Virus record (IMG/VR): IMGVR_UViG_3300042878_000903
Location: 32,001-96,000 of that record
DNA: 64,000 bases
Source: a virus
Reading direction: 5' to 3' (one strand)
Translations under genes and position numbers: made by a program
Notes under the pieces: generated by a model
Told to the model about the DNA's origin: nothing
Seen by the model: the letters and a program-made list of their open reading frames with translations, nothing else
Databases searched by the model: none
Shown: piece by piece, positions 3,772 to 61,614 of the stretch
Position numbering within the stretch: the stretch's first letter is position 1
Layout: every line of letters starts with the position of its first letter

Positions 3772-3777
3772 TAAATG

Positions 3778-8917: not shown

Positions 8918-8918
8918 T

Positions 8919-26900: not shown

Positions 26901-27167
26901 ATTTGGGTTTAATATAAAATAATTAATTCCTGCTGCCGAAGGTCTTCTTGGGTCTATTATGCTGGTTAATGGAAATAATTTTTTAAATGGCTGATATGTT
27001 TTACCAGTAATTGGGTCTGTTTGAGTTGCAGTTTCAGCTGGTGTAGCCGTAACAGATGCATTTAAAATTAAATCGTTCATATTATATTCTAGCCAGCATC
27101 CGCCTGACATTGAATATGAAGCAGATGTATTTAGTTTATCTAGAGTTGTTTGGCTTACTGATTGCAT
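23904..27167 (-). CDS. Large minor tail (tail tip/hub) protein
   Basis: 1087 aa two genes after the TMP; C-terminal P.IETGDVVEI hub motif; start refined to MQSV. Confidence 0.75.
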   Translation of the reverse strand: MQSVSQTTLDKLNTSASYSMSGGCWLEYNMNDLILNASVTATPAETATQTDPITGKTYQPFKKLFPLTSIIDPRRPSAAGINYFILNPNVTNSIPKYNVSSDLPVRTYFSSPKNQYKFWVSPKSGGTTLSNFSFTVDYPISKTAVTNTILVKFETSYSKPSTWSIKIQDHAGTETTISTNGVVPDNGVFQLYWNGSSWSTTKFTTPSAPVNIKKIIVTVNTISVANSYLGIIEVGARYIQDVSNRIVSFQVSKTSSDDSSGIVPVGSVTSNALSMSLEGYDKRGIEYDKTMPFNKDNINLYKNVKVSPFNKIGDDVIPQGVFYIDSFTLSEFGDIDIQGLDGAKFLQEILAPDIVIQNAPSQAIIRRLLDSVGFTGYNFNTYGKGDANKVDSATIVPLYWFTEDTKTVWQHIQDLCRDTQMIATFDNNDILQFYPRDYLFDPTRTSGFKFRSESKGVNIPNIISLTKETVPSVKAVKVIYTPIISTNYQGSSDNLYVSPPAAIGAAALQTTLLATAPAETNADKGVVSLSPISIYSDLADTSFYNKAGYFLINNEIIEYDAIEFQYEPLSAPNTVIKKWITSDSDIAKFLGESKINSFKPTLRYRIKERNAFNATGKGIGVGDSHSVNIDELKNQWTGSKLNLSAKTNVEDQSVFSLRQTDGSGSLISRSLLTIVAPTASKEYYCASINPDVNFTSQKYFSIGTALFFKLAKGSNGRVTGEQFVSAGLGIGLDANNLNGYILKIGTSQNVANKGLNYRDVQLFKIVNGVETPVSDTQKTEEASITGVSGGEFYRVDVRVSQATTGQRIFKIKFNNAVITATDSAATTMGNKIALIGIQGESAFDYAYIASLKKEDFTGSYSYDNYGSYVGSATELKNVFGDFIAIGSASTLSSPWIKEFGPVAREIKKISTRYATRPGFVKYPQIILNPNVTLLGYDANSFGIDAYILNNTGAFVDLADGGQKSFIVVGETVAPLDPFEYLDPDLSATKNDEQVAFESMWIQKESEAKELSKWMRTQWSKQQTVIQIDVFPNPIIETGDVVEISYPNNMIYSTEDTGQTAGKYIVLDIEQGYSQAPSTKLTCRSIYV

Positions 27168-27616
27168 TATACTTCTTCCAGCGAAATACTTACATCCCAA
27201 AATGCCTGTGCTGCATCCGCCGTTTTTTCCTTTACATTTCTTTTGATCATATTAAATGAGCATGAAGTAAAGCTTGCGGCAAAATCTTCGGTTCTGGCTG
27301 AGTTATAGGCTATTCTTACATTAAATGTTCCTTGGCCCTTAGCACTTAAATAAAATGCTTTTATATCTTCTGCTCCCCAGCCTGCATCTACGGTCATGGT
27401 GGAATATGACGGAACCATGCTCCAGGAGGTGGATATGTTCTTCTTATCGGCTATAAACAGCTTTCTAAGGCTTCCATTGGCCATCCTAGAGGTCTGCTCA
27501 AAGCGTTGTACATCTACGGATATTGGGGACCTATTATGTTCAGTTAATTTTTGCCATACGCTATTAGCATCTTGTATAAACAATGCTGAGCCGACTGGTA
27601 ATACTAAAGCTGCCAT
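27167..27616 (-). CDS. Distal tail (Dit-like) minor tail protein
   Basis: Directly after the TMP; RMANG.LR and terminal SISLEEV. Confidence 0.65.
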   Translation of the reverse strand: MAALVLPVGSALFIQDANSVWQKLTEHNRSPISVDVQRFEQTSRMANGSLRKLFIADKKNISTSWSMVPSYSTMTVDAGWGAEDIKAFYLSAKGQGTFNVRIAYNSARTEDFAASFTSCSFNMIKRNVKEKTADAAQAFWDVSISLEEV

Positions 27617-46240: not shown

Positions 46241-47353
46241 TTACTTCTCTTCTAGGGCTTTGACTCTCGCTGTAAGCTCTTGTACTGCTTTAATTAATGG
46301 TGATATAAATTGATCGTACCTAAGTCCTTGCATAGAATCTTCTTGTGACATATCCATTTTTACCCAACCAGCAAAATCCCCGACACCAGATTCATCTAAG
46401 GCTTGTTTTACTTCTTGGGCAATAAGTCCATAATGTGTTCTTGATCCAGGAATAGAAACTATGTCTCCTTCGACAACTTCTTTGCCGCCTTCAACGAACT
46501 TATATTTTACGGGATTTAAATTATTTATAAAGTCAAGACCAAGCGGGGATGTAGCAATATCAGTTTTTAATCTTTCATCTGAAGTATTAATGGTTCCAGT
46601 ATTAGAGTATATTGTTTTCCAAAATCTATTTGATGAAACTCCATTTGGTACATCTGTTGGCTGACCTATTGAATAAAGATTGTTTGCAAAAGGATACCAG
46701 TTAGAATTTACTCCGTATCCAGAAGATGTTGGTATGTTTAAACTTATTGTTGTTGGAATTGGGTCAATTGTTGCGCTCTCTCCAGGAATACCTTGAGGTC
46801 CAGTTGCGCCAGTTGCGCCAGTTGCGCCTCTTGGTATTGTAAATGAAAAAATAGCATTTGCTGTTGTTCCAGTATTTGTTACCGAAGCATTTGTTCCAGC
46901 ATTGCCAGTTGTGGTTGTTCCAACAGCTATTGTTGCTGGGCCTTGTGGACCTACTGGTCCTTGTATGCCTTGTGGACCTTGAGGGAGAACTAAATTTAAT
47001 GTTTGTGAAGGGCTGGTTCCAGTTATTGTTGCACTAGCAGAACCTCCCTCAACAACCGTTCCAATATTTAAAACATTGGATGGGCCAGGGCCACCAATAA
47101 TTCCATCAACACCTCTTGGTAATGTTAAATTTAATATAGCATTAGATGCAGTTCCTACATTAACAACTGATGCTGGTGTAGCCGCACTAACAGTAGTTAC
47201 TGTACCCACCGCTAACGTGCCTGAAGGGCCCTGTGGGCCTGGATTAGCGGCTATAAAGGTTGCAATGTCGGCACCAAGGTTTCCAAGGTCTCTAGGGACG
47301 TCTGGGGTGTCTGTATAGTCTGGAAATCTCCAGCCATTTACTCCTGTACTCAT
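46241..47353 (-). CDS. Collagen-like fibre protein with C-terminal peptidase S74 chaperone
   Basis: GXY runs (GPQGIQGPVGPQGP; GATGATGATGPQGIPG); TSDERLK...GLIAQEV; leaderless promoter TGGTATAAT at 47360-47368. Confidence 0.85.
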   Translation of the reverse strand: MSTGVNGWRFPDYTDTPDVPRDLGNLGADIATFIAANPGPQGPSGTLAVGTVTTVSAATPASVVNVGTASNAILNLTLPRGVDGIIGGPGPSNVLNIGTVVEGGSASATITGTSPSQTLNLVLPQGPQGIQGPVGPQGPATIAVGTTTTGNAGTNASVTNTGTTANAIFSFTIPRGATGATGATGPQGIPGESATIDPIPTTISLNIPTSSGYGVNSNWYPFANNLYSIGQPTDVPNGVSSNRFWKTIYSNTGTINTSDERLKTDIATSPLGLDFINNLNPVKYKFVEGGKEVVEGDIVSIPGSRTHYGLIAQEVKQALDESGVGDFAGWVKMDMSQEDSMQGLRYDQFISPLIKAVQELTARVKALEEK

Positions 47354-47373
47354 TTTTTTATTATACCACCTAT

Positions 47374-48024
47374 CTATTTAATATATATGTGTGCTGGGCT
47401 CATGTATCTAATGCCAGACACAATAGGCTTTACTTCGTGAATATATGGCTCTTGTGATGGGAACATTATTAGGCTTCCAGCTTTTGGTTTTATAGTAACA
47501 TTGTGATTTGGGAAACTAATTTCTCCACCCTCATAATCATCATTAACATATGCCACTAAAGAAAATGCTAAATCCTTGTTGCCATCCTGTCCATCAAAAT
47601 GTGGGCCCATTGATTGTCCTTCATTCCAGGCTTTTATTGGTATGCGATCAAGACTTAAATTATATTTATTTCTATCTAATTTTCTAGCGTCTAAATATCT
47701 ATCAGTACACATTTGAAAGGCCATCAAAAAACTATTGGCAATATAAAGAGTTTTTTTATCTACTATATCTGATCCAGTAGTTGTTTTTAACGCAGATCTA
47801 TTTATTGTTTTTGTTTTACCATATACCAGACTAGAATCATTGCTTGCCGTCCAATTTTCCCATTTGGATATCCTGGAATACGACTCTGGCTCTTCGTCTA
47901 TTTTGTCTATAAAATCTTTTAAATGTTCTGGAAAGCTTAATGCATTTTCCCAGTACCAGATATCTGTTCCCAAAATTTTAAGATCAAACATTATAAACTG
48001 CTTAAACTCTACATTATTTTGCAT
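47374..48024 (-). CDS. 2OG-Fe(II) oxygenase (P4H-like) #5
   Basis: HFD...YVNDDYEGGE...HEV......RY. Confidence 0.9.
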   Translation of the reverse strand: MQNNVEFKQFIMFDLKILGTDIWYWENALSFPEHLKDFIDKIDEEPESYSRISKWENWTASNDSSLVYGKTKTINRSALKTTTGSDIVDKKTLYIANSFLMAFQMCTDRYLDARKLDRNKYNLSLDRIPIKAWNEGQSMGPHFDGQDGNKDLAFSLVAYVNDDYEGGEISFPNHNVTIKPKAGSLIMFPSQEPYIHEVKPIVSGIRYMSPAHIYIK

Positions 48025-48025
48025 G

Positions 48026-48778
48026 TTAGCCCTCTACTTCTGATGCTGGATACACTTCTCCACGGGGGGTTATTCTTAATCCTTTATTTCTATAGTCTTC
48101 CCACTCAATAGCCTCATCTGCTTGCATTGCTCTAACCTCAGCAAGCTCTGCCGCCCAAGCATCTCTAACTTCTTGCGGGTAATCACTTTCTTCTCTATCG
48201 TCCCAGAATGATCCTAGAGTATATCTAATAGATTTTTTAACTGTGGTAACTTCGTGCATGTTATGGAATCCTCCAGCAAATGTTACTAGAGTTCCAGTTT
48301 TTGGAACAATTGTTAATCCATGCTTAAAGTTTAAAATACCATCTTCAAAGTCATCGTTTAAATAAAGAAAGGTTGCATATCTACTTCTAGTAAATGCTCC
48401 TGAAACTCCATCATTAGAAGTATTGTCTGAGTGCATATTTGCAAAAGCTCCTGGTGCCCATCTTTGAGAGTGCCAGCTTATCTGCGACATTTGTGCTGAA
48501 TCTTTTCCAGCCATATCTGCAGTAGCATCTATAACTCTTTGTCTAAGATCTACAAAAAAATCTCCTGGTAAGCCACAGGCAATTGTGTCTGGGTCATTTA
48601 GCTCTGGAGTGCCTGATGAGTATGACTCATAAAATGAAATTGGCATCCACTTTAATTGTTCTTTTTCCATCTTAATAGCTAGAACATCAATAATTGATTT
48701 ACATTCATCTGGGGTTAAAAAATTGTCATATTGCACAATATCTGGCTTGTGTCTAGTTATAACCATATCTCTTTCCAT
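48026..48778 (-). CDS. 2OG-Fe(II) oxygenase (P4H-like) #4
   Basis: DNFLTPDEC, HSD, YLNDDFEDG, HEV......RY. Confidence 0.9.
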   Translation of the reverse strand: MERDMVITRHKPDIVQYDNFLTPDECKSIIDVLAIKMEKEQLKWMPISFYESYSSGTPELNDPDTIACGLPGDFFVDLRQRVIDATADMAGKDSAQMSQISWHSQRWAPGAFANMHSDNTSNDGVSGAFTRSRYATFLYLNDDFEDGILNFKHGLTIVPKTGTLVTFAGGFHNMHEVTTVKKSIRYTLGSFWDDREESDYPQEVRDAWAAELAEVRAMQADEAIEWEDYRNKGLRITPRGEVYPASEVEG

Positions 48779-48780
48779 AA

Positions 48781-49680
48781 TTACATCATTCCTTTTTCTG
48801 CTTTAGCATCAGATGGGACACCAAATTCTTTAGCATCAAATGGGACACCAAATTGTTTTTCATCATATGGGACACCAAATTGTTTTTCAACATGTTCCTC
48901 ATATGTAACTGGAACTCCGTCATTAAAATAAACCATGTTTCTTTTATCATCGTATTCAATTCTTTGTTGCTCCATTTTTGCCCACTTGTAAGCACCAAAT
49001 TTTCTTTGGTTTGCAAGCCATTCTTCTGTGCCATTATGAGGAGTCATTATAAAGTTTCTAACAAAAAATTTCTCATTGCTGTTAATTGTTTTTACCCCAT
49101 GATAGTATGGCTCTGTTGATGGAAATACTAAAATATCTCCAGCCTTTGGCTTATGATTAATAAATTGCCCATCAATATAAAACTCTATATCTCCGCCATC
49201 GTAATCATCATTAATATACATTGTGCAGGTAATTGAAAATTTCTCCCCAGGCATATCTTTTTGTGATGTTATGTGATCTGTATGATATTGCATTGTAAGC
49301 TTACTTTTAAGATTATCAACTCCTGCATGATATTTAGAATAAGATGATCCGCTAAAACGCCAGCCTTCTGGCAATTTTATATTGTGTCTTTCTATGTAGT
49401 CCGCTATAACCTTACTATATGCCGATTCAACTTCTTCAACGAATGCCTTTTCTTTAATAAACATTTCTGTAGATTGAATTTCTGCAGAAACTTCTCTCAT
49501 ATCTTTTTTCTGAGTATACGTTCCAAAATGGGCCCAAGGATCCCAGGTCTTTAAAAAATACTTTCCTTCTGAAGTTTTTTCTGAAGAATTCATGACTTCA
49601 TATAGTTGTGCTGGATCTTTTAAAACATTTCTATAAACATCAACTTTTGGGTACAGTTCTATATAGTCTAATTGGCTCAT
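48781..49680 (-). CDS. 2OG-Fe(II) oxygenase (P4H-like) #3 with C-terminal 9-aa repeats
   Basis: HTD, YINDDYDGG, HGV......KF; start refined to MSQL. Confidence 0.9.
   Translation of the reverse strand: MSQLDYIELYPKVDVYRNVLKDPAQLYEVMNSSEKTSEGKYFLKTWDPWAHFGTYTQKKDMREVSAEIQSTEMFIKEKAFVEEVESAYSKVIADYIERHNIKLPEGWRFSGSSYSKYHAGVDNLKSKLTMQYHTDHITSQKDMPGEKFSITCTMYINDDYDGGDIEFYIDGQFINHKPKAGDILVFPSTEPYYHGVKTINSNEKFFVRNFIMTPHNGTEEWLANQRKFGAYKWAKMEQQRIEYDDKRNMVYFNDGVPVTYEEHVEKQFGVPYDEKQFGVPFDAKEFGVPSDAKAEKGMM
48802..48889. repeat. 27-bp tandem repeat x3 encoding K(Q/E)FGVP(Y/F/S)D(E/A)
   Basis: Units start at 48802, 48829 and 48856. Confidence 0.9.
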
Positions 49681-50354
49681 GGTTGTTTTTCTCCCGTATG
49701 TTTTTGTATCGTCCAAAAGAATGGAGATGTAAATCTATTTCCAGAGATTACTGGACGTACTCCATGTGTATAATTCATATCACCTGGAAAAAAATATGCT
49801 GCTCCTGCAACTGGCTGAAATTCAATTCCGTGCTGTGGGAAATATAATTCTCCGCCTTCATAGTCATCGTTAAAATAAAATAAGCCAGCCAAATCATACC
49901 AAGGAAAATCATTTGCTCTTCCTTTTTCTGGGCCAGAATGAAATTCTTTATCTGCATGCGGCTCTTGTCTGGCACCAACAGGCCATCTAACAATTGCTGG
50001 ACCAGTTTCTTTTGCATCAACATTAAAAAATGCATCTACTTCTATTTTAAGTCTTGCTATCATGCTATAAATTAATTCTAATATCGATGGGTCTGACGCC
50101 ATTAAAGAATTGTAGGTGCAAACTCTATTTTCCCAAACTGTGTGGTCATATAAAACTAGGCCATCGGCATCTCTATGGGTTTCTGTTATGTCCCAAATTT
50201 TATTATTAAGGGAAAAGTCCATCAATCTTTTACGCTCTTCTATTGTAAGGAAATCTTTTATTTCTACTATGTTATTTATGGAATTACCAAAAAATCCAGA
50301 CGGAGTAATAGATTTTGGCTTTTGATCTTCTGTCCATTGGTTTGCTAGCTTCAT
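49677..50354 (-). CDS. 2OG-Fe(II) oxygenase (P4H-like) #2
   Basis: HAD, YFNDDYEGGE, HGV......RF; leaderless promoter TGATATAAT at 50361-50369. Confidence 0.9.
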   Translation of the reverse strand: MKLANQWTEDQKPKSITPSGFFGNSINNIVEIKDFLTIEERKRLMDFSLNNKIWDITETHRDADGLVLYDHTVWENRVCTYNSLMASDPSILELIYSMIARLKIEVDAFFNVDAKETGPAIVRWPVGARQEPHADKEFHSGPEKGRANDFPWYDLAGLFYFNDDYEGGELYFPQHGIEFQPVAGAAYFFPGDMNYTHGVRPVISGNRFTSPFFWTIQKHTGEKQP

Positions 50355-51079
50355 TTATCTATTATATCATTTCCCTTGTTTAATTCATGATTGACTTTAA
50401 GCCTAATAGCTTTTACTTGATGACCGCCTAGGACATTTTTAAGGTGATCTACAGCATCTCTATAAAAATTAGACCAAATTGCTTTTCTGTTTAAATCGTA
50501 AATAACATTAGAATACTCGTTAGAGTCAAATTTAGGGTCTGGCAAAGACTCTACTTTATCAAAATTTATTTCTGAGTTTTGTAAAGCCTCTAAATCTATT
50601 GGTAGTATAGCAATTATTGGTGTTCCTGCTTTTATGGTAATAACTTCGTTTGGTTTAGTTATCATCCAGGCACATGGCAATTCTCCTCTAAAAAATGATG
50701 TACTCATTAAGGTTGTAAAAGGAACGGCACCGTCAATGAATAAATTTGGAACTGGCATAGATAGAAGACTTAAATTTTCTTCAGTAGAAAACATTAGGCC
50801 CGTATTAAAACTTACTGTTCCATTAGCTCTACCAGAATAAGCATACTTTTCACCAGACAAAATTTTAACGTGATCTGGAGTGCTGTCTGTTACGCCATCC
50901 CATATAAAAGATATATCTTCTGGAAAAGATATTCCCCAGCCAAGCTGGTTAGTGAGTCCTACTGGAAAACATTTATATGCATGAGATTCCCAAGTATTAT
51001 CCATCCAATCTCTTTTAATTGAAAGAGGAAAAACTTCTCCGTAACCATTTCTTATTGTATAGGCTTTAATTTTATGCAT
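50351..51079 (-). CDS. DUF6065-like protein
   Basis: RDWMD...HAYKCFP...NQLGWGI; start refined to MHKI. Confidence 0.7.
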   Translation of the reverse strand: MHKIKAYTIRNGYGEVFPLSIKRDWMDNTWESHAYKCFPVGLTNQLGWGISFPEDISFIWDGVTDSTPDHVKILSGEKYAYSGRANGTVSFNTGLMFSTEENLSLLSMPVPNLFIDGAVPFTTLMSTSFFRGELPCAWMITKPNEVITIKAGTPIIAILPIDLEALQNSEINFDKVESLPDPKFDSNEYSNVIYDLNRKAIWSNFYRDAVDHLKNVLGGHQVKAIRLKVNHELNKGNDIIDK

Positions 51080-51785
51080 ACGAGTTTTTGCCAGTTTTTT
51101 CATCTTCTACTAACCATCTGGCTCGTGCTTCAAAAAATTCTTGTCTGTGAGCATGATCATTATAATCAAGCATTGTTACAATAGAAAACTTCATGCCATC
51201 TTCTACTGGCATTGCTCTATGCGAAAATAGATAGGTAGATGGGAAAATATATAAATCGCCAGCTCTTGGCTTAATGTTTAGACCTAATTTAGGAAAAAAT
51301 AAATTGCCTCCTGCATAATCGTCATTTACATAAGCAACTAATGATACTGTGGCACTATATGAAAATCCGTGGTCGGCATGCTCTTGGAAGTGTTGTCCTT
51401 TGCCGTATCTAATACAGTTCATAACTTCCCAATAATTCATCTTTACACTATATTTAGTACAATAATCTTGAACTGCTACATCCTGTGCTTTTTTTAAATC
51501 AGACCATAAATCTGCAACTAGTTTCTGGGTTTCATTGACTGGATTAATTATCTCTCCAATTTTAATATCTTCACAGTCTCTATATGATGGTCTTTTTTCA
51601 CTATACCCAACAAAACCAAATGTCCAACTGTATCTGGAATCTGCCTCTTTATCAGCAGAATTTCCTATTGCGTTTAATCTATTAATAACGTCTAAATCTT
51701 TTTTAATTACATCTCTGTATACCCACACGCCTGGGAAAAGCTCTTCCTTTGAAGAAAATCCATATTGGTCATTTATAGTAGTCAT
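51072..51785 (-). CDS. 2OG-Fe(II) oxygenase (P4H-like) #1
   Basis: RY..GQHF..HAD, YVNDDYAGG, H...PV..G.KF. Confidence 0.9.
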   Translation of the reverse strand: MTTINDQYGFSSKEELFPGVWVYRDVIKKDLDVINRLNAIGNSADKEADSRYSWTFGFVGYSEKRPSYRDCEDIKIGEIINPVNETQKLVADLWSDLKKAQDVAVQDYCTKYSVKMNYWEVMNCIRYGKGQHFQEHADHGFSYSATVSLVAYVNDDYAGGNLFFPKLGLNIKPRAGDLYIFPSTYLFSHRAMPVEDGMKFSIVTMLDYNDHAHRQEFFEARARWLVEDEKTGKNSYA

Positions 51786-51791
51786 GCCTTT

Positions 51792-51820
51792 ATTGTATCA
51801 TTTTGAATTTACAAATACAA
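51792..51820 (-). promoter_or_regulatory. Promoter TTGTAT-N17-TACAAT, leaderless start of the oxygenase cluster at 51785
   Basis: ATG 7 nt after the -10. Confidence 0.7.
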
Positions 51821-51824
51821 TAGC

Positions 51825-51859
51825 AAAAAGAGGGGGGCATTGTGTGCCACCCCTCTTTT
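51825..51859. terminator. Intrinsic terminator between the FN3-Hint gene and the oxygenase cluster
   Basis: AAAAGAGGGG-GGCA loop TGCC-A-CCCCTCTTTT. Confidence 0.8.
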
Positions 51860-51867
51860 ATAGATAT

Positions 51868-53073
51868 TTAAGCTATTACTAGGAAGGAATTAACGATAAA
51901 CCATGGATTTGGAGATGTTCTAACATCGTACACGGTAGATTCTGTTTCACTCTTTTCAACTGAGGTTACTGGAGTTCCTTGGACTAGTCCATTTGAATCT
52001 ACTCCTATGATTATTTCTCCTATCTCAATTTCTCCTGCATTCTTATAGGTAATACCATTTGAGGTTTTTACAAATAACGGCTGGGTTTCTGAGTAGTCTT
52101 TACCTCTGTAATTAAATCCAATTAGCTTTCCAGTTTTTTCTGTTATTGAAATAACTTCTGAATTTGTAAGCTTAACTGTTGATTCTAAATGTCCAGATGT
52201 TTTATTTGCGGTTATAGATTCAAGATTAATATTAGAGTTATCAACTGTTATTACTTGATCTCCAATTTTAATATCTTTAGCTTTTACCCATCCAGTATTG
52301 GTGAAAATAACTGATTCTGGTGATAAACACTTACCCTTAAATCCTGGTGGGGAAAAGAACCCTGGTGGGGCAAAGAACCCTGGTGGGGCAAAGAACCCTG
52401 GTGGGGCAAAGAACCCTGGTGGGGCAAAGAACCCTGGTGGAAAGAACGGTGGAAAGAACGGTGGAAAGAACGGTGCTTGAGTTGTAATTTCCGCTGTATT
52501 TGCTGAAGCTGCTGACCGACCATTAGCATTATCTGCATAAACATTATAATACTGAGATGTATTAGCAGTATCATTGATGGTTATACTTAGGGATGCTGTA
52601 TTTCCATTTGTTCCATCATTACCTGCAACATAGTAGTTAGTTATTGCGGATCCACCATTTGCTGGCTCTGTCCAAGTAATTGTGTTTTGGTTAACTCCTG
52701 CAGTTGCGATTGGGCTTTGTGGAGCTTGAGGTACGGTTGTTGCAGTAATGCTATTTGAGGCAGCAGATGCTGCACCAGTTCCTACTGCATTTGTTCCCGT
52801 TACCGTAAATGTATATGCTGTATTTGATTGTAAACCAGTTACAGATATTGGAGAAGATGCTCCTGAAGCAGTATACGATCCTGGAGAGGATGTTACTGTA
52901 AAGGATGTAGCAGCAGGTGAATTTGCTGGCAAAGAGAACGTTACGTCGGCCCGTCCATTGTTATATGCACGACCAGATGGTACGTTTGTTGCTGTTACTG
53001 ACTCTGGTGCCCGTGGCTCCAAAAAGTCATTTGATGCCTGTGCCTTTTTACCGAATTTCTTACCTACTGCCAT
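51868..53073 (-). CDS. 2x fibronectin type III + PP(G)FF repeat tract + C-terminal Hint domain protein
   Basis: FN3 motifs (VTGL...YTFTVTGTNAVG; W..P.NGGS.IT.Y); repeat tract; Hint starts CLSPES...KDIKIGD and ends VYDV...FIVN. Confidence 0.85.
   Translation of the reverse strand: MAVGKKFGKKAQASNDFLEPRAPESVTATNVPSGRAYNNGRADVTFSLPANSPAATSFTVTSSPGSYTASGASSPISVTGLQSNTAYTFTVTGTNAVGTGAASAASNSITATTVPQAPQSPIATAGVNQNTITWTEPANGGSAITNYYVAGNDGTNGNTASLSITINDTANTSQYYNVYADNANGRSAASANTAEITTQAPFFPPFFPPFFPPGFFAPPGFFAPPGFFAPPGFFAPPGFFSPPGFKGKCLSPESVIFTNTGWVKAKDIKIGDQVITVDNSNINLESITANKTSGHLESTVKLTNSEVISITEKTGKLIGFNYRGKDYSETQPLFVKTSNGITYKNAGEIEIGEIIIGVDSNGLVQGTPVTSVEKSETESTVYDVRTSPNPWFIVNSFLVIA
52339..52476. repeat. 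18-bp (FFAPPG) x5 plus 12-bp (FFPP) tandem repeats
   Basis: cctggtggggcaaagaac units at 52343 (variant), 52361, 52379, 52397 and 52415; ggtggaaagaac units at 52448 and 52460. Confidence 0.95.
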
Positions 53074-53106
53074 TTTGAATCTCCTTTTTAACTATTTAAA
53101 TTTGTA

Positions 53107-54942
53107 TTACGCCATCAAGTCGCCGTAGACAACCCATGTATTTGCTGCTCTCTTAAAGAGAGTACAAGATGACCAGGTTGTACGAAGCTTTAGGCCAGGT
53201 GTTGCGTTAACTGTAACTGTTCCTGATACTGGGGCAATTGTTACTTGTCCAGCTCCAGTTTGAAGAATATCAATAGATGTTCCGATTGGGAAGTCTAGAG
53301 TTGCGTCTTCTGGTATTGTTAAGGTTAGAGGTGATCCTGATCCCATTTCGATTAGATCATCTCTTTCAGTTAGTGATGAAAGTGTATATGATGCTGTTTT
53401 TGCAACGATTGGTGTTAAAGAATCTACCTTTAATCCAAGGCTGGTTGTTACTGATGCTGCAAAGTTTGCGTCATCTCCAAGTGCTTGAGCAAGTTCATCA
53501 AGTGTATTCATTGCTGCTGGTGCACCAGATATAAGTGCGCTTACCTGTGATGTTGCGTCTGCAATTGCTTCAGATTTTGCTGTTGCGATTGCTGAAGACT
53601 GTGCTGTTGATACTGGCTTATTAGCATCAGAAGTATTGTCAACATTTCCAAGTCCAAGTGTTGCTGGTGTTACTGCTGCAACCTCTGACTTAAGTGCTAG
53701 AAGTGCTGTATCTGCAATTCCATGAACATTTGTAGTGTCTGCTTCATGGGCTGAAAGAGCGGTAGCTGCTGCTGTAATTTGTGTTTGAACTGATGATGTA
53801 ACTCCATCTAGGTATCCAATTTCTGTTGAAGAAACTGTACCAATTGATGTTGTACTTGGAAGAGTTACTGTACCAGTAAATGTTGGTGAGGCCAAATCTG
53901 ATTTAGCTGCAAGAGATGCACCTAGTCCAGAAATTTTGTCTTGGTGAATTGCTGCAGTAGCACTTACATGATCATTTGTAATTTGAAGATCTGCAATTTT
54001 TTCTGCAGTTATTGCATCAACTGCAATTTTATCTGCAGTTACTGCACCATTTAGAATTTTTACTGTAGATATTGCATCGGTTGCTAAATCTGCTGTTTCT
54101 ACAGAGCCTGCAGGAAGTGTTACTGATCCTGTTACTGTTAAGTTAGTTAAGCCGATATCTGTTGCTGTAAGGTTTCTAAGCTCAAGATCATCTAGGCCTC
54201 CTTGGCTAAAATTAATTGTAGTGGTTGGTGCATCGGTTACTCCTGTAAAGAGTTTCCATTTATTAGCAGATGCATCTCTTGCAAATCCTGTGTGATTAGC
54301 AACTCCATCATTGTGTTTAGCTACAAATCCTAGATCTAAAGCATTTCCTGCGTTGGTTGATGCTAATGCAATTAGTGGATCTTCTGTTGTAAAGTTAGCT
54401 GTATCTAATGTTACAGTTGTTCCATTAACAAAAAGATTTCCAGCTAATGTTAAATTTTCTCCTGATATGCTTCCACTTGTTGAAATATCTGTTGCTAGTC
54501 CTGTTAGCTTTAATTGTGCCTCTGGAACCTTAATGTTTCCATCAAGTGAAGCAACACCATTTGCTGATCCACGATCTGAATTCTCTAAGTATGTGCTTGC
54601 TGTTGAATTTGTAAGTCCAGTTACTGCTGCATCAACATAGGCTACTGTTGCTACTACTGCTGAATCTACAGAAATTGTAATTGTATTTGCGCCATCATTA
54701 TAAGTCTTTGTTAAACCTGCACCCATTGTAAGTGCTGTATTGATTGCGTCTTGTGAAATTTCTCCAATTTCAGGTGCATCTGCTGCTACGTAAGAAAGGG
54801 AATTCCATGCGGTGGATCCATCTCCAACTTTAATTTTTCTAGTGTTTGTTTCAACGCCTAGCTCTCCTGCTGCAAGTATTGGATTTACTCCAGACCAGTC
54901 TGTTGCTGATCCTCTTCGAACTTGAATTCTTACTGTTGACAT
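53107..54942 (-). CDS. Fibre protein with Mtd/hyaluronidase-like N-terminal anchor
   Basis: RIQVRRG....W...NPILAAGELGVETNT.K.K.GDG...W..L; fibre repeats; ends W.VYGDL. Confidence 0.8.
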   Translation of the reverse strand: MSTVRIQVRRGSATDWSGVNPILAAGELGVETNTRKIKVGDGSTAWNSLSYVAADAPEIGEISQDAINTALTMGAGLTKTYNDGANTITISVDSAVVATVAYVDAAVTGLTNSTASTYLENSDRGSANGVASLDGNIKVPEAQLKLTGLATDISTSGSISGENLTLAGNLFVNGTTVTLDTANFTTEDPLIALASTNAGNALDLGFVAKHNDGVANHTGFARDASANKWKLFTGVTDAPTTTINFSQGGLDDLELRNLTATDIGLTNLTVTGSVTLPAGSVETADLATDAISTVKILNGAVTADKIAVDAITAEKIADLQITNDHVSATAAIHQDKISGLGASLAAKSDLASPTFTGTVTLPSTTSIGTVSSTEIGYLDGVTSSVQTQITAAATALSAHEADTTNVHGIADTALLALKSEVAAVTPATLGLGNVDNTSDANKPVSTAQSSAIATAKSEAIADATSQVSALISGAPAAMNTLDELAQALGDDANFAASVTTSLGLKVDSLTPIVAKTASYTLSSLTERDDLIEMGSGSPLTLTIPEDATLDFPIGTSIDILQTGAGQVTIAPVSGTVTVNATPGLKLRTTWSSCTLFKRAANTWVVYGDLMA

Positions 54943-54990
54943 TTTTTCTCCCTTTGTTACTTTATATTAGATTATTATACCATTATTTAT

Positions 54991-55524
54991 TTATACTAAA
55001 GTGCCTGAATCAAAAGTTAATTCGTACACTAAAGTGTCTGGGTATCCACCATTTGCATATTTATTTGCCGATGTTGAAACCCCGTTGCCTTGAACTGTAT
55101 ATACTGGTTGACCATTGTAATCAATTGCAAGACCTATATCCATGAAGCTTATATCTGGGGTTGCTTCCCAGTCTACGTTTCCAGAATCAAAAACCATTCC
55201 ATAAGTTGGAGTTGATGGGCTTCCGCCATCAGCAAATTTAGTTGCTGTTGTAGATACCCCATTAGCTTGAATTGTATAGATTGGCTCACCATTGTAATCA
55301 ATTGCAAGACCTACGTCCATTAAATTGATCATTGTGTTTTCGTCTGGAACTTCTGAATTTAAAGCTATTGGCATCCATTGGCCATTTAGCTGAATTTGTA
55401 ATTTGTTTGTTACGGTATCAAATCTTAAGGGAGTAGACCCTAATACAACATTAGACTCAAACGTAGCAGTGCCTGCGACATTTAGTCCATTCTTAACTCT
55501 AAAATTCTTATTTACTGTTGCCAT
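54991..55524 (-). CDS. Virion protein with internal 59-aa duplication
   Basis: KNFRVKNGL N-terminus; two MD(V/I)GLAIDYNG...FDSG units. Confidence 0.7.
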   Translation of the reverse strand: MATVNKNFRVKNGLNVAGTATFESNVVLGSTPLRFDTVTNKLQIQLNGQWMPIALNSEVPDENTMINLMDVGLAIDYNGEPIYTIQANGVSTTATKFADGGSPSTPTYGMVFDSGNVDWEATPDISFMDIGLAIDYNGQPVYTVQGNGVSTSANKYANGGYPDTLVYELTFDSGTLV

Positions 55525-55593
55525 TTAAGTTCACATATCCCCTAAGTGTTTTTTGTGGGGAGATTTCAGGCTCTCCCCAGGCCGTTTATTTAA

Positions 55594-56748
55594 TTATTTA
55601 AGAAGTGTTCCAGATACTTTAACTGTTGAGTTATCTACTGGAGTTACTCTTATTCGTACATTTGAACCTGATACGTCTGCTGTGATAGTTCCTCTTGATC
55701 CATTAGTTCCGACAATTGCATATTCTGTAACTGCTACATTGTCTGACGAGTCTAGTGTTATTAGAACCTCTGATACTTCATTGTGTGTTGCGTTGTCAAT
55801 TTTAACAAGAACTTTGGCTGAGCGGTAGTCTGCCTTTGCCCACTCATAAGCTGTTCCAGCAACTGATGCTGTTCCAGATGATGAAGCTGCAAATTGCTTA
55901 GCTTGATCATTTACGTTTAATGCTGTAAATGCTGTTGTTCCGTTTTGCTGTGCTGTATTAGCGGCTGCTGCTGTTGCTTCTGCTGCTGCTTGCGCTGCGT
56001 TGGCCTTAGTTGTTGCGTCTGCTGCTGCAGTTGATACTGAAGCTGCGTCGCCTGATACTCTAAGTGCTGCTTCTGCTGCTATGTCTGTAGCAACTTGGGC
56101 TGAGGTAGCTTTTGTTGCAAGAGCTGTTGTAATAGTTGTTGTGTAATTAGCATCATCATTAATTGCTGCTGCTAATTCATTTAATGTATTAAGAAGGTCT
56201 GGTGCGCCATCTACTAATGTGCTTACTGCGCCAGAAATTGCTGTGTTACGATTTGAAACCTCTGTTGATATTGCAGATGAAAGAGCGGCTGCTGCTGTTG
56301 CTTCTGCTGCTGCTTGCGCTGCGTTAGCCTTTGTAGTTGCGTCTGCTGCTGCTGTAGCTACTGAAGCTGCGTCTCCTGATACTCTAAGTGCTGCTTCTGC
56401 TGCTACCTTAGTAGTTGCATCTGTTGCTGCAGCTGTAATTGCTGCAGATTGCGCTGCGTTAGCCTTTGTAGTTGCATCTGATGATGCTGCAGAAATTGCT
56501 GCAGACTGAGCAGATGAAGCTGATCCATAAGCGTCAAATACGTTAGCCTTTACTGTAAGATTGCCTGCACCATCGACTGCAAATGTTCCTGCGTCTACGG
56601 ATTTTACAAGAGTAGCACCGCCAACAAGGTTGAGGATGTAAGCATTTCCGCCTGTTTCTGTAAGTATATTTTGACCATTGATTGTACCTGTAGCACCCTC
56701 AACTATAAGGCCTGATTTAATTCTAAAGTTTTTTACTACTGTTGCCAT
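55594..56748 (-). CDS. Ala-rich coiled-coil fibre protein
   Basis: KNFRIKSGL N-terminus; DATTKANAAQ repeats; C-terminal YRSAK...SEVL beta domain. Confidence 0.75.
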   Translation of the reverse strand: MATVVKNFRIKSGLIVEGATGTINGQNILTETGGNAYILNLVGGATLVKSVDAGTFAVDGAGNLTVKANVFDAYGSASSAQSAAISAASSDATTKANAAQSAAITAAATDATTKVAAEAALRVSGDAASVATAAADATTKANAAQAAAEATAAAALSSAISTEVSNRNTAISGAVSTLVDGAPDLLNTLNELAAAINDDANYTTTITTALATKATSAQVATDIAAEAALRVSGDAASVSTAAADATTKANAAQAAAEATAAAANTAQQNGTTAFTALNVNDQAKQFAASSSGTASVAGTAYEWAKADYRSAKVLVKIDNATHNEVSEVLITLDSSDNVAVTEYAIVGTNGSRGTITADVSGSNVRIRVTPVDNSTVKVSGTLLK

Positions 56749-56778
56749 TTTATATGACTCCTCTTATTGCTTTTTTTG

Positions 56779-57336
56779 TTATGCTTTAAGCGTTGTTCTG
56801 ATATATCTTACTGAGATAGAACCAGAAACAGGGGTGACTCTTAAACTAATTATACCTGAGTTTTCTTCAAAGGTATAAGAAAATAAACTAGTGTTTGTGT
56901 TTGAGATAATGTTTGATTCTGAAACCATTATGTCTGTTCCGTTATGAGAAACAAGAATTTCTGATGTATAAACATCGGAATTTTTTGTCACCTGAATGTT
57001 ATATTTAGCTGTTCTCCATACGCTCTTTGAAAAAGAGTCTACGTTTGTAGCGTTTTCAATACCATAGACTGCAAGGTCATTGTTGCCTTCTAATCCAAGA
57101 AGCTCTATAACGTTGTCTGTGCTATTGTCTAAATTGATTAACGTAGTTTCAATAGTAGATACTTTGTACGTCAGTGATGCAGGATCTGTTGAACCGTTTA
57201 CACCAACTTTTGTTTCTAATGCTTCAATGGCATCATTTGCATTTATATGTTGCTGCGAATGAGATGGTGATGATAGCTCGTCGGAAGAATTAGGATTAAC
57301 TAATTGATCTAAGCTAGATGGATAATTGGTGGCCAA
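56779..57336 (-). CDS. Virion fibre/adaptor protein
   Basis: ATNYPSSLD...H...H...NDAIEALETKVG; C-terminal domain similar to that of 55594-56748. Confidence 0.7.
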   Translation of the reverse strand: MATNYPSSLDQLVNPNSSDELSSPSHSQQHINANDAIEALETKVGVNGSTDPASLTYKVSTIETTLINLDNSTDNVIELLGLEGNNDLAVYGIENATNVDSFSKSVWRTAKYNIQVTKNSDVYTSEILVSHNGTDIMVSESNIISNTNTSLFSYTFEENSGIISLRVTPVSGSISVRYIRTTLKA

Positions 57337-57409
57337 TTGACTACCCCCTATGTGTAATTATGTTGCTTAGATAATTATACCTTATTATTTTTTACAAAGA
57401 AGGTTTATT

Positions 57410-57649
57410 TTACCATTTTGACAATGGGCAGGTTGCTGCTTCCATTGCTGTCTTCATTTTCATTAGACAGCCACATTGTTTACATTGTGTAGTTAATGAT
57501 ATGAACTCAGGACATCCCCTGCAAATATTTAGTCTTTGTTCTTTTTTTTCATCAGTAGTCCATACGGTATTTGGATTTAGCATATCCCATGGCTTGACGG
57601 TATTTGGATCAACTAGGTTTGCTTTTATTGTTTTCCACCTTGAAGTCAT
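57410..57649 (-). CDS. Small six-Cys protein (DUF6171-like)
   Basis: R..IC..C...QC..CGC.M..KT......CP..KW. Confidence 0.7.
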   Translation of the reverse strand: MTSRWKTIKANLVDPNTVKPWDMLNPNTVWTTDEKKEQRLNICRGCPEFISLTTQCKQCGCLMKMKTAMEAATCPLSKW

Positions 57650-57651
57650 AA

Positions 57652-57882
57652 TTAATCCTTGTTAAATGATGTGCCGTTCCATTTCCATCCAGATGCTGGG
57701 GTTGGAAGTTGTGATATTTCTATAGGCAAATCTGTAAAATTTATTATTTTAGGGTTACTTGATAGTCCTGATCTTAATATTTCTGTTTGAAAGTCTCCTG
57801 TTGGTATAGCAAACCATCCAGCAAACTCATTATCAACAAGAACAAAAAATACTTCTCCGTCAATATCTCTTTTTATAGACAC
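57652..57882 (-). CDS. Small hypothetical protein ending GWKWNGTSF
   Basis: GTG start with AAGGAG RBS; TGCTATAAT promoter at 57903-57911. Confidence 0.7.
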   Translation of the reverse strand: MSIKRDIDGEVFFVLVDNEFAGWFAIPTGDFQTEILRSGLSSNPKIINFTDLPIEISQLPTPASGWKWNGTSFNKD

Positions 57883-57917
57883 GGTAAATCTCCTTTTTTA
57901 AAATTATAGCATAAAAA

Positions 57918-60110
57918 TTATGCTATGGCTATAGTAGAATTAACAATAAACCAAGGTTCTGGGGAAGTTCTAATATCATAAACCTTTGAATCAAAATCAT
58001 CTACTTCAATTGATTCTACTACAATATTTGAGACTGACCCGCTTGAATCTACATTTATAATTACATCCCCAATATTAATATCTCCAGCATTTCTATATTC
58101 TATTCCTTCTGAATTTTTAATAAATATAGGCTGATTAATAGAATAGTTTTTACCAATTTTATTAAATCCAATTAATGTTGAAGTTTTTTCTGTTATAGAA
58201 ACAACCTTTACATTTGAAAATTCAATAACGGATGGTAATTCCTGTGATGTCTTATTTTGAGATACAGAATTAAGGTTTATGTTTGAACGGCTAATCGATA
58301 TAAGGTCATCTCCAACAAAAATATCTTTTGCTTTTACTAAACCATTTTTAGTAAAGACAAGTCCGTCTGGTGATATACAGGCTTTACCTCCCTTAAATGA
58401 TGGTGGGAAGAACGGTGGAACGTTTGGTTCAAAAATTGGTGGGAAGAACGGTGGTATGCCACCATCGACTCCAAAACTTGGTGGGAAGAACGGTGGGAAG
58501 AACGGTGGGAAGAACGGTGGTGCAAAAACTGGTGCTGGGTCAGTTGATTGACATGCTGGATAACTTGTCCCAAACGAACACTGACGAGAGTAGCCGCTAC
58601 CAGATGCGGACGTGTCGGAACCAGGTTTTGTGTAGCTGCAATTACCTACGCCAGCTCCAGGACTAGAGGTTGTACAATGCCATTCGCTTTGTATGCCTAT
58701 TGGTGCGGGATCTGTTGATTGGCATGCTGGATATGTTCCAGTGTTGTTGTATATACACTGACGAGAGTAGCCGCTACCAGATCCTGAATTATCAAAACCA
58801 GGGGCTGTGTAACTACAGTTACCTACGCCAGCACCTGGAGAAGAGGTTGTGCAATACCATTGAGAAGCTGGTGCTGGGTTAGTTGATTGACATGCTGGAT
58901 AAGTTGTTCCAAATGTGCACTGACGAGAGTAGCCGCTACCAGATGCGGAGTTATCAAAACCAGGGTCAGTATAACTACAGTTGCCTACGCCACCGCCGTT
59001 GGTAGAGGTTGTGCATTTCCATGTGTTTGGTGCTGGAGGATATGTTATGGTTACGGCTGGAGAAGAAAGCCAGGCGGTCTCTGTAAATCTTGGAGATGTT
59101 CCTATAATTAATACTACAAAAGATCCAAATGTATCTGGAGAAGCACCAGGTCGATCTATGTCTAAGAAATTAGTGCTAGGACTTGAAGATGCAGAGCTTG
59201 CATATACTGAACCATCATTGTACACTGTCCAACTAGTTACAGTTATGTTTGTAGCAGACCAAACCAATTTTCCTCCGTAACTGTAAGAAAGCATTCCTGC
59301 TGCAACTGAAGGTTTGTTTGGCTTTAAATCGGTAACCGATGCATTTTTGCCGTATCCGCTTAATGACGTTCCAGAAACATTGGATGTATTCAATGGATTA
59401 ATTAATATTCCTAAAGTTCCTGAAGCGGATCCTGTGTCAATTGTAAATTTACATGTAGTACCTGATGTAGAATATACACCTTTTGCAGAATCTGTATTAT
59501 TTACCATACTAGTAACTTCTGTAAATGCTACTTCTGGTCCTTGGTATTGTATATAATAATCATTAGCGCCTTTTACTTTTTCCCATGTAAACTCTACTAC
59601 GCCATTTGACACAACATTAACAGTTATATCTCCTAAATTAGCGGGAGCAATTACTGGACTTGATAAGGTATATATATCTCCTGAATTTTTACCATCTGCA
59701 TTAGTAGCCGAAACTTTACACCTAACCGCATAGCCAACATATTTTAATGTTTGTTGAGAATCCCATTCGTCTTCAGATAATGCCAAAGAGCTTGTTGTTT
59801 TATCAAGTATGTTAGACCAATTAGATGTAGGATATGGAGCTTTTTGCCATTGATATTCAAATGTTGTTGGTGAATTTTCCCAAGTACCATTTGTTGTTAA
59901 AACTGTTTGTTCTGCAGCATAAAGAAATGATGAACCTTGCAAAGAAAGAGTTGGCAAAACTGTATTGACTGGAACTATTCCTAGTAGATTTTTCCACTCA
60001 GACCCATTCCAAACATAAGCCGCCTTAGAATCGTTCCAAGATGTTCCATCATGGATTTGAATCTTTTTTAAAGGATTCCAACTGGAACCATCAAAAATGT
60101 TTAGCGGCAT
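57918..60110 (-). CDS. Virion protein: Ig/FN3-like domains + three Cys-rich repeats + PPFF tract + C-terminal Hint domain
   Basis: DG.SW N-terminus; P.NT..P...GTW..P..F.YQW Ig-like domain; repeats; Hint CISPDG...VYDI...FIVN. Confidence 0.85.
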   Translation of the reverse strand: MPLNIFDGSSWNPLKKIQIHDGTSWNDSKAAYVWNGSEWKNLLGIVPVNTVLPTLSLQGSSFLYAAEQTVLTTNGTWENSPTTFEYQWQKAPYPTSNWSNILDKTTSSLALSEDEWDSQQTLKYVGYAVRCKVSATNADGKNSGDIYTLSSPVIAPANLGDITVNVVSNGVVEFTWEKVKGANDYYIQYQGPEVAFTEVTSMVNNTDSAKGVYSTSGTTCKFTIDTGSASGTLGILINPLNTSNVSGTSLSGYGKNASVTDLKPNKPSVAAGMLSYSYGGKLVWSATNITVTSWTVYNDGSVYASSASSSPSTNFLDIDRPGASPDTFGSFVVLIIGTSPRFTETAWLSSPAVTITYPPAPNTWKCTTSTNGGGVGNCSYTDPGFDNSASGSGYSRQCTFGTTYPACQSTNPAPASQWYCTTSSPGAGVGNCSYTAPGFDNSGSGSGYSRQCIYNNTGTYPACQSTDPAPIGIQSEWHCTTSSPGAGVGNCSYTKPGSDTSASGSGYSRQCSFGTSYPACQSTDPAPVFAPPFFPPFFPPFFPPSFGVDGGIPPFFPPIFEPNVPPFFPPSFKGGKACISPDGLVFTKNGLVKAKDIFVGDDLISISRSNINLNSVSQNKTSQELPSVIEFSNVKVVSITEKTSTLIGFNKIGKNYSINQPIFIKNSEGIEYRNAGDINIGDVIINVDSSGSVSNIVVESIEVDDFDSKVYDIRTSPEPWFIVNSTIAIA
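58530..59021. repeat. Three roughly 54-59-aa four-cysteine repeats
   Basis: Exact 27-mer cactgacgagagtagccgctaccagat at 58579, 58756 and 58918. Confidence 0.9.
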
Positions 60111-60120
60111 TTCAGGCTCC

Positions 60121-61614
60121 TTAGTATTGTATGTAAATATCTCCAGCAGAATTACCGCTTGCAGGTGGTGTTAAGCTTGTGCTATATGTAATTTTATTTA
60201 TGTTAGCAGAAGAGCTTCCGTTAGTATATGTTCCGTTAATATTATTAGATGCAGCAGTGGTGGCAGCTGTAATAGATGATGTGATGGCTGATGGAATTGC
60301 AGACTCTAGTATTTTACCGTTTGAATCTAGCCCAGCATATCCATTATTTTCATTTCTTTCAGATTCTGGCTGGTACCCGCCTAATGAGTTATCAATACTA
60401 TTTTTGGCTGTATCAGTATATGCTTTTGCTTCGGTTAAAGCGGCTGTAAGATTGGCAGAAGTTGCATATCCAGGAATTACTGGAGTTCCAGTAAATGTCG
60501 GCGAAGCAATTGGAGCATAAGTTGTTGCTGCCAAGTCAGAAGACAATTTTGTTCCAACCAAAGTTGTTAATGTTGATGCACCAGTTTGATCTGATGCAAT
60601 ATAATCTGCAATTTCTTTAAGTGTATCAAATGAAGCTGGTGCCGCATTTACAACATTTGCTATTGCTGCAGAAATATCTGATGTTCTTGCTATGGAAGAT
60701 GGAATCAGTGATAGTGGTATTAAAGCAGAAGCATCTAGTCCAGCTACGCCATTTAACATATTCCTATCTGACACTGGAATATATGCGCTAGAAATTTCTG
60801 TTCTTAAATCATCTACAGCTGAAAGAGCAGCATTTAAAGAAGCAGTACGTGCAGCATTTGTTGCTGTAACAGCTCTTGCATTTGTAAAGTATAAATTAGT
60901 TCCTTCTGGTAATTGAGTTGTTGATGTAATTGGAGAAGGTACTGTAAAATTAGCTAATGAAGAGTCAACATAACTTCTGGTAGTAGTAATTAATGGGTCT
61001 ACTATTGCTGATACTCTATTTGTTGTAAAATATAGGTTTGTTCCTTCTTCTATGTCTGAAGTAGTAATAAGATTAATTGCCGTGTTTATTTTTGTATCTG
61101 CAATTTGTCCCGCTAAAGTTACTGCGTTTGTAGATTTTGTTGTTGCATCTGCCGCTGCGGTAGTAATTGCTTCTTGGAATTTTGATGTTGTGTGTAAATT
61201 AGCTGAACTTAAAGCTTGTGCTGCAGATCCGTAAACATCAAAATATCCGTCTCCTGCAGTCCTTGCTCTTGCATTAGTAAAAAATAAATTTGTTCCTTCT
61301 AAAAGACTTGATGTTGTAAATGGACCAGAATTATTTATAGCATTTTGAATTGCCGTAGCGGCTTCTGTGTCTAAAGAAATTTGATCTGGTAATTGTGATA
61401 AAGGTATTTTGCCGTCAGAATTTAATGTAGCAATTCCATTTGCTTGTCCTGGTTTAAATGCATAGTTTGTAAGAAGATTCCATCTTTGGGTTCCGTTACC
61501 TATTTTAAATTTAAGAGTATCAGTTTCTATTCCTATTTCACCGTTTAAAAGAAGTGGATTGTTCGCTGTCCAATTTGCTGCGGTGTCTCTTCTTAATTGA
61601 ATTTTAAATGCCAT
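60121..61614 (-). CDS. Fibre protein with Mtd/hyaluronidase-like N-terminus
   Basis: KIQLRRDTAANW...NPLL..GEIGIETDT; EGTNL(Y/F)FT x3; NG.A.L...K/LI repeats; ends GDIYIQY. Confidence 0.8.
   Translation of the reverse strand: MAFKIQLRRDTAANWTANNPLLLNGEIGIETDTLKFKIGNGTQRWNLLTNYAFKPGQANGIATLNSDGKIPLSQLPDQISLDTEAATAIQNAINNSGPFTTSSLLEGTNLFFTNARARTAGDGYFDVYGSAAQALSSANLHTTSKFQEAITTAAADATTKSTNAVTLAGQIADTKINTAINLITTSDIEEGTNLYFTTNRVSAIVDPLITTTRSYVDSSLANFTVPSPITSTTQLPEGTNLYFTNARAVTATNAARTASLNAALSAVDDLRTEISSAYIPVSDRNMLNGVAGLDASALIPLSLIPSSIARTSDISAAIANVVNAAPASFDTLKEIADYIASDQTGASTLTTLVGTKLSSDLAATTYAPIASPTFTGTPVIPGYATSANLTAALTEAKAYTDTAKNSIDNSLGGYQPESERNENNGYAGLDSNGKILESAIPSAITSSITAATTAASNNINGTYTNGSSSANINKITYSTSLTPPASGNSAGDIYIQY

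Follow-up and report, generated by a model that had tools for sequence, protein, structure and literature searches.

Why do two otherwise unrelated proteins of a single bacteriophage end in the same proline- and phenylalanine-rich tract followed by the same intein-like domain, and does a battery of prolyl-hydroxylase-like enzymes encoded directly after one of them act on that tract? These questions are raised by a 64,000-nucleotide stretch of viral DNA, referred to here as the window, which comprises bases 32001-96000 of the 109,968-bp record IMGVR_UViG_3300042878_000903, rated complete. The source is a complete uncultured lake phage of ~110 kb. An earlier note on this DNA had viewed the tract as a portable substrate tag that is oxidized and then exposed or ligated through the Hint (Hedgehog/intein) domain behind it. 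By sequence comparison, the tract-Hint cassette defines a small, almost virus-only family, and together with the oxygenases it constitutes a real module, in which the link between substrate and enzyme is plausible but positional only.

A tract-Hint cassette on fibre-region proteins

Between the two proteins, of 401 and 730 aa (Table 1), similarity is confined to the C-terminal 167 residues (56% identity, E 1e-56); their N-terminal parts show none that is significant. In the shared segment, a basic junction (FKGK in one protein, FKGGKA in the other) connects a Pro/Phe tract to a Cys-initiated Hint domain of 153 aa that ends at the stop codon; the earlier note had described the same order of tract, junction and Hint domain. 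The tract is absent from every other open reading frame (ORF) of the 110-kb genome, and in both genes it is encoded by an almost perfect tandem repeat (18-bp x5.4 plus 12-bp x3.3 at 52343-52475 in the shorter gene; 12-bp x3.4 at 58480-58520 in the longer). Pfam recognized fn3 in the 401-aa protein (E 1.7e-8), with sub-threshold matches to Intein_splicing and Hint_2, while a stretch of the 730-aa protein weakly matched a major-tail-protein-like phrog. Both are probably virion proteins, given the FN3 domains and a location among fibre genes, with the portal, prohead protease and capsid genes just downstream. Right before its tract (58529-59022, minus strand), the 730-aa protein also contains three tandem modules of ~55 aa with four Cys each, encoded with a DNA period of 162-177; its relatives have more copies of this module, with (PPAT)n linkers between them.

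An exhaustive HMMER scan of 1.84 billion representative proteins yielded 75 family members at E <= 1e-3, nearly all with the Hint domain at the extreme C-terminus. A scan of 185,579 prokaryote genomes returned only two small contigs from metagenome-assembled genomes, both resembling phage fragments, and no cellular home for the module was seen there. Isolated phages gave no match to the 13.9-kb region by megablast; when 50,697 isolated phage records were searched by tblastn with the 401-aa protein, an FN3 match was the only result, and no Hint-module homologue appeared.

A Pro/aromatic low-complexity tract precedes the Cys in every full-length member examined. The proteins that carry it are 400-1100 aa long, and their N-terminal parts consist of FN3, PASTA, Cys-rich modules or unassigned beta-rich regions, so that the description of tract and Hint domain as a portable module, found on several kinds of scaffold, is borne out. 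The repeat units are diverse, including PPFF, APPxFF (x = G, S, A, E, T, Y), PFFPPFF, PYFPFF, PWFPPWF, PHFPPHF, PPDFTPA, FTPFGAFG and poly-Pro, with (PPAT)n in one orthologue of the long protein. What is conserved is an aromatic residue plus Pro/Gly rather than X-Pro-Gly. In one degenerate member (L114:5995-7635), the tract is a long (AFG)n run and the Hint-like domain lacks Cys1 and the usual terminus.

The conserved genomic unit is a fibre gene followed by a Hint-module gene, with an Mtd_N-type fibre upstream in nearly all related loci, distant ones included; the fibre block of the window holds two copies of this pair. In a tree of the Hint domains, those of short and long proteins from loci L015, L030, L043, L059, L073 and L094 and from the window, like their junction motifs (FKGK, IPWFGPP or RFHAW before the C), cluster by phage lineage, not by protein type, which suggests that the cassette has been exchanged or homogenized within genomes by concerted evolution.

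The Hint domain and its predicted chemistry

When the family profile was compared with the PDB, the best match was 2LWY, a bacterial intein-like (BIL) domain (E 2e-10), followed by archaeal mini-inteins. An AlphaFold2 (AF2) model of the domain (pLDDT 91.2) retrieved inteins, the Hedgehog HhC domain (1AT0) and BIL domains in Foldseek (TM ~0.77, E down to 1e-7), with a CDC21-1 type intein as the top match. As modelled, the domain has the HINT fold and is closest to BIL domains. Cys1 is invariant in 77 of 77 distinct domains, as are FN and P..WF motifs. A sterol-recognition region of the Hedgehog type is absent, the Hint fold extending to the last residue. Proteins of the window lineage end in ...(V/A)IA, having lost the terminal His-Asn and having no C-extein, which sets them apart from inteins; more distant relatives end in ...LVHNK and keep His-Asn with at most 1-3 residues beyond (HN plus K/LKI). 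Because there is no C-extein, splicing is excluded and only N-terminal thioester chemistry, either cleavage or transfer/ligation, would be possible.

The fold, the invariant Cys1 and the missing C-extein fit the thioester chemistry that the earlier note had expected. Block B does not fit it: the position of the block-B His is occupied by Gln (Gln83), also invariant in the 77 domains, the T-x-x-H of 2LWY aligning to S-x-x-Q in the phage domain; a few distant family members keep the His. This replacement leaves Hint activity not assured and weighs against self-cleavage. The domain might instead be catalytically dead, a structural or binding knob that ends a spacer and is never cleaved, as both the replacement in block B and the loss of His-Asn in the window lineage would suggest. 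Against this, Cys1 and Gln83 are equally invariant, as would be expected of an active site under constraint and working in a different way, not of one in decay, and distant members retain His-Asn. Some inteins, including those of the CDC21-1 type, function without a block-B His. A dead domain is therefore considered unlikely, and the Hint domain probably cleaves itself at its N-terminal junction.

In the favoured reading, surface proteins are laid out as FN3 or Cys-rich binding domains, a Pro/aromatic low-complexity tail and a BIL-type Hint domain. The Hint domain would form a thioester at Cys1 and remove itself through N-terminal cleavage during maturation, leaving as the new C-terminus a Pro/Phe tail that ends in ...FKGK. 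In this respect the Hint domain would parallel the S74 chaperone of the adjacent fibre, which is also self-cleaving.

Oxygenases beside the Hint genes

Directly after the short Hint gene, the earlier note had recognized five 2-oxoglutarate (2OG)-Fe(II) oxygenases with intact motifs and a DUF6065 gene, and both Pfam and a motif alignment agree. The five 2OG-FeII_Oxy_3 (PF13640) scores, 31.9-49.7 bits, all exceed the curated cut-off of 27; H-x-D and the distal H are invariant, with K or R ~10 residues after the distal His. Compared with solved structures, the profile of these paralogues was closest to the Bacillus anthracis collagen prolyl 4-hydroxylase (P4H; E 8e-13), followed by prolyl-3-hydroxylase 1 (P3H1), PiuC-type enzymes, lysyl hydroxylases, the P4H of Paramecium bursaria chlorella virus 1 (PBCV-1) and PHD2. 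By profile, the oxygenases are thus protein-hydroxylase-like (prolyl/lysyl) and not TET/JBP- or AlkB-like. The C-terminal 60 residues of oxygenase 3 (48781-49716) form an extension with three (E/D)KQFGVP(Y/F/S)D repeats. Enzymes of the same kind occur elsewhere in the genome: an oxygenase (8072-9016, PF13640) and a second DUF6065 gene (7075-7770, 78.3 bits), both on the minus strand, lie in a replication module 43 kb from any tract gene, and a metabolic island outside the window (G000:C1:3153-13630; L110) contains three more PF13640 oxygenases.

Related loci were gathered with a Hint subgroup alignment and a degenerate DNA pattern. Among ~90 related lake-phage contigs, oxygenases usually adjoin Hint genes, in several arrangements, and 43 of 50 related viral records contain 1-15 PF13640 genes. 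In most lineages, 5-11 oxygenases plus DUF6065 begin within 100 bp after the short Hint gene, and oxygenases 1-5 represent an old orthologous series in kept order. Long Hint genes of other lineages have their own small oxygenase of 160 aa 0-10 bp downstream, and still others have, at a distance of a few hundred bases downstream, oxygenases that belong to two more paralogue clades. In lineages other than that of the window, oxygenases were inserted just before or after the gene of the 79-aa Cys-rich protein. In one lineage the cluster lies upstream of the Hint gene instead. The involvement of three unrelated paralogue clades ruled out the idea that a single paralogue, always the same, was copied along with the cassette to give the Hint-adjacent oxygenase.

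In the favoured reading, the five collagen-prolyl-hydroxylase-like enzymes would hydroxylate prolines of the flanking virion proteins that are rich in Pro, and the Pro/Phe tail is the prime candidate substrate. The combined model, in which a Hint cap cleaves itself from fibre-associated surface proteins and hydroxylases modify Pro-rich virion proteins, is put forward tentatively, at somewhat short of an even chance. Action of the oxygenases on Pro-rich virion proteins, taken by itself, is given the same guarded standing; action on the Pro/Phe tract specifically is more doubtful.

Several observations weigh against tying the enzymes to the Hint proteins. In the window phage a terminator-like hairpin parts the Hint gene from the enzymes. 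The earlier note had cautioned that a terminator and a new promoter lie here; the hairpin was found, and the caution holds for this phage, but a sequence scan recovered no promoter-like site between the hairpin (51853-51834) and the first oxygenase, and in several other lineages the gap from Hint gene to oxygenase is only 0-12 bp. The loci all come from a single syntenic phage group; most of the adjacency is therefore inherited and reflects one or few events. The prediction that tract genes and oxygenase/DUF6065 clusters neighbour each other was upheld as a recurrent association in several arrangements, but much of it is inherited synteny, and oxygenase and DUF6065 genes are also found far from any tract gene. 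The proportion of Pro in the tract correlates with the number of nearby oxygenases when kinship is ignored (rho 0.43, naive p 0.001), yet phylogenetic pairing left 3 supported independent pairs and no power (sign test, median p = 1).

The nature of the genes around the oxygenases counts further against the link. Four or five more PF13640 oxygenases are encoded elsewhere in the genome. The pair in the replication module adjoins RecA (9094-10098) and DNA polymerase III alpha (10356-13655), suggesting that oxygenase plus DUF6065 is a unit in its own right. The oxygenases of the metabolic island are interleaved with genes for S-adenosylmethionine decarboxylase (speD), a sulfotransferase, glutathione peroxidase, a deoxynucleoside monophosphate kinase, a 687-aa haem peroxidase and a Cys/Met pyridoxal-phosphate enzyme; the speD-adjacent oxygenase has an orthologue beside a long Hint gene in a relative, indicating that oxygenase genes move between regions. 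Other genes occupy the position behind the Hint gene in FTPFG-tract lineages and in the distantly related locus L106: besides unknown genes, these are class II ribonucleotide reductase, methyltransferase, radical S-adenosylmethionine (radical-SAM)/SPASM, sulfotransferase, ferritin and GMP reductase genes, which makes this position an accessory-gene island. Behind the PFF-tract Hint gene of L106 lie genes for a TylF-like methyltransferase, a radical-SAM/SPASM enzyme and a sulfotransferase (2871-4512 and 4866-5441), which could be a different tailoring set or mere accessory genes. Finally, DUF6065 weakly matched dUTPase in the PDB by sequence (E 0.03), and its AF2 model, of moderate confidence (pLDDT 81.5), is a dUTPase-like beta-barrel for which Foldseek returned dUTPases (E 1.6e-4, TM ~0.65 on target); this is weak evidence hinting at nucleotides rather than proteins, and such a fold would be surprising in a factor for protein tailoring. 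A literature search on DUF6065 found nothing relevant.

Taken as a whole, these features suit an alternative in which the boundary between the fibre and head blocks is permissive and has received the oxygenase/DUF6065 cluster as an accessory (auxiliary-metabolic) island, without a functional tie to the Hint proteins. The targets of the cluster would be host proteins, nucleotides or DNA, or small molecules, or it would merely consume 2OG, the tract being only a spacer. The missing Hint-module homologue in isolated phage records is in keeping with this alternative, as are T4-like marine cyanophages, which carry many such oxygenases, proposed to serve DNA repair or 2OG balance (PMC3037559). Three observations speak for the link instead. 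The five paralogues keep their order by the Hint gene although the Hint domains are only ~25-35% identical, which is not the behaviour of a fluid island; at the site after long Hint genes, only oxygenases were inserted in the loci examined, from three paralogue clades and at differing positions; and the closest solved relatives of the enzymes hydroxylate proteins, not nucleic acids. The accessory island is the main rival, a substantial possibility only slightly less likely than the favoured model.

A further alternative would have the hydroxylases serve collagen-like fibres only, with the Pro/Phe tract unmodified and the Hint gene merely the other neighbour. A collagen-like fibre with G-X-Y runs and an S74 domain follows the oxygenases in the window, and in several lineages collagen-like genes follow the cluster directly, at 0-20 bp or ~450 bp, one of them with 185 G-X-Y triplets; the cluster is thus bracketed by Pro-containing structural genes. 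The best solved relative of the oxygenases being a bacterial collagen P4H also fits, and mimivirus pairs collagen genes with a hydroxylase. The window fibre, however, has only 11 G-X-Y triplets, in two runs (5 and 6), with very few Y-position prolines, which is little work for five enzymes, and some long Hint genes are overlapped by small oxygenase genes at loci whose closest collagen-like ORF is 2-5 kb distant. Service to collagen alone is accordingly judged improbable.

Two arguments of the earlier note have been given up. The first took the X-Pro-Gly character of the tract as the mark of a P4H substrate. Because the Gly position of PPG varies freely (G/S/A/E/T/Y), and because whole lineages use PFFPPFF, PHFPPHF, FTPFGAFG or PPAT, this Gly was ruled out as a site mark. 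The second likened the system to that of a ribosomally synthesized and post-translationally modified peptide (RiPP). The tract belongs to proteins with folded FN3, PASTA or Cys-rich domains in a fibre block, whereas a RiPP precursor is short, comprises a leader and a core and yields a small modified peptide; no leader peptidase or exporter for such a system was seen, and the label was dropped. A more elaborate variant of the favoured model, in which the hydroxylase-decorated tail is an extensin- or mussel-adhesive-like polymer and the Hint thioester is resolved by a partner nucleophile rather than by water, is likewise improbable. In that case the nucleophile could belong to the host envelope or to a virion protein, either the Mtd_N fibre next to it or a different one, and Hedgehog/BUBL-like chemistry would covalently ligate an adhesive tether onto the fibres or the host.

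Every gene in the region is on the minus strand (Table 1). The host probably belongs to low-GC freshwater Actinobacteria, as suggested by a WhiB-like gene (G000:C1:22052-22225, outside the window; E 3.8e-13) and by a portal ~56-59% identical to those of large Streptomyces phages; the GC content of the genome is ~36%. A further fibre in the tail region (20061-22589, minus strand) combines FN3 with a C-terminal S74 chaperone and lies beside very large ORFs (23904-27200, 1098 aa; 27616-35115, 2499 aa).

Table 1. Positions of the cassette genes, oxygenases and neighbouring features, in window coordinates
Feature	Position	Strand	Remarks
401-aa Hint-module protein	51868..53073	-	two FN3-like domains, tract, FKGK, Cys249, Hint
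401-aa protein, tract (PPFF)3(GFFAPP)5	52330-52476	-	
401-aa protein, Hint domain	51871-52329	-	starts at Cys249 after FKGK; reaches last residue (...LVIA)
730-aa Hint-module protein	57918..60110	-	N-terminal Ig/FN3-like part, Cys modules, tract, FKGGKA then C, Hint
730-aa protein, Pro/Phe tract	about 58380-58529	-	
730-aa protein, Hint domain	57921-58379	-	included in the alignment behind the AF2 model
79-aa Cys-rich protein	57410..57649	-	conserved downstream of long Hint genes
Mtd_N fibre protein	60121..61614	-	directly upstream of long Hint gene; Pfam Mtd_N E 3.9e-13
Mtd_N fibre protein	53107..54942	-	directly upstream of short Hint gene; Pfam Mtd_N E 1e-14
Terminator-like hairpin and T-run	51834..51853	-	just past Hint gene stop, before first oxygenase
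2OG-Fe(II) oxygenase 1 (P4H-like)	51072..51785	-	PF13640 E 7e-13; tree; orthologue usually adjoins short Hint genes
DUF6065 protein	50351..51103	-	PF19541 E 5e-29, 101.9 bits vs cut-off 26.6
2OG-Fe(II) oxygenase 2	49677..50354	-	PF13640 E 2e-7
2OG-Fe(II) oxygenase 3	48781..49716	-	PF13640 E 8e-9
2OG-Fe(II) oxygenase 4	48026..48778	-	PF13640 E 3e-7
2OG-Fe(II) oxygenase 5	47374..48024	-	PF13640 E 2e-11
Collagen-like fibre	46241..47353	-	short G-X-Y runs; C-terminal S74 intramolecular chaperone, Peptidase_S74 E 8.5e-14
Gene order (direction of transcription): fibre-like block, then 401-aa Hint protein	63043 down to 53107, then 53073-51868	-	
Gene order, continued: five PF13640 oxygenases and one DUF6065 gene, then collagen-like S74 fibre	51785-47374, then 47353-46241	-	
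Gene order, continued: LamG-like protein, then portal, prohead protease and capsid genes		-	

Relation to known systems

Hint autoprocessing and viral P4H-type enzymes are both of known kinds. BIL domains such as Clostridium thermocellum BIL4 (2LWY) share with the phage domain the HINT fold, the Cys1 nucleophile and occurrence in variable surface proteins rather than as a selfish insert, and cleavage rather than splicing is expected of them. The phage domain differs in being C-terminal and virus-encoded, with Gln in block B, His-Asn lost in the window lineage and a Pro/aromatic repeat in front. The autoprocessing domain of Hedgehog (1AT0), which frees an N-terminal signalling part via a Cys thioester, is likewise a C-terminal Hint domain of similar fold (TM as given above); the phage domain lacks its sterol-recognition region and differs in block B. 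The Peptidase_S74 chaperone is also a C-terminal self-cleaving domain on phage fibres, differing in fold and in chemistry (a Ser-Lys dyad versus a Cys thioester).

On the enzyme side, PBCV-1 P4H (5C5T) and B. anthracis P4H (3ITQ) are small virus- or bacterium-encoded P4H-type 2OG oxygenases recovered as profile matches. PBCV-1 P4H hydroxylates Pro-rich repeat peptides like those that PBCV-1 encodes. The phage group differs from these in having 5-11 diverged paralogues plus DUF6065 and in a predicted substrate that is Pro/aromatic, not PAPK or G-P-P. T4-like cyanophages have multiple orphan PF13640-type paralogues per genome (PMC3037559); unlike them, the present group has a fixed oxygenase set inside a structural block, and the T4-like cyanophages are without the tract-Hint module at the sensitivity of tblastn. 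Literature searches on Hint domains on phage fibres and on hydroxyproline in phage virions found nothing relevant, the matches concerning terminase inteins or unrelated work. Three features are undescribed in the literature searched and are new: the capping of phage fibre-region proteins by a terminal Hint domain whose block B carries Gln, the Pro/aromatic tract that obligatorily accompanies this cap, and the recurrent pairing with a battery of oxygenases.

Among the unexplained genes of aquatic phages, multi-copy 2OG-Fe(II) oxygenases rank with the commonest; the roles proposed in print are either DNA repair or the balance of 2OG (PMC3037559). In the present phage group, such orphan enzymes have a candidate substrate encoded beside them, in the form of short, synthesizable Pro/Phe repeat peptides. 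If the link is true, it would represent post-translational hydroxylation of bacteriophage virion proteins and would provide a large family of orphan enzymes with a function. Should it fail, the Hint cap would still be a new, predicted autoprocessing module of phage fibres.

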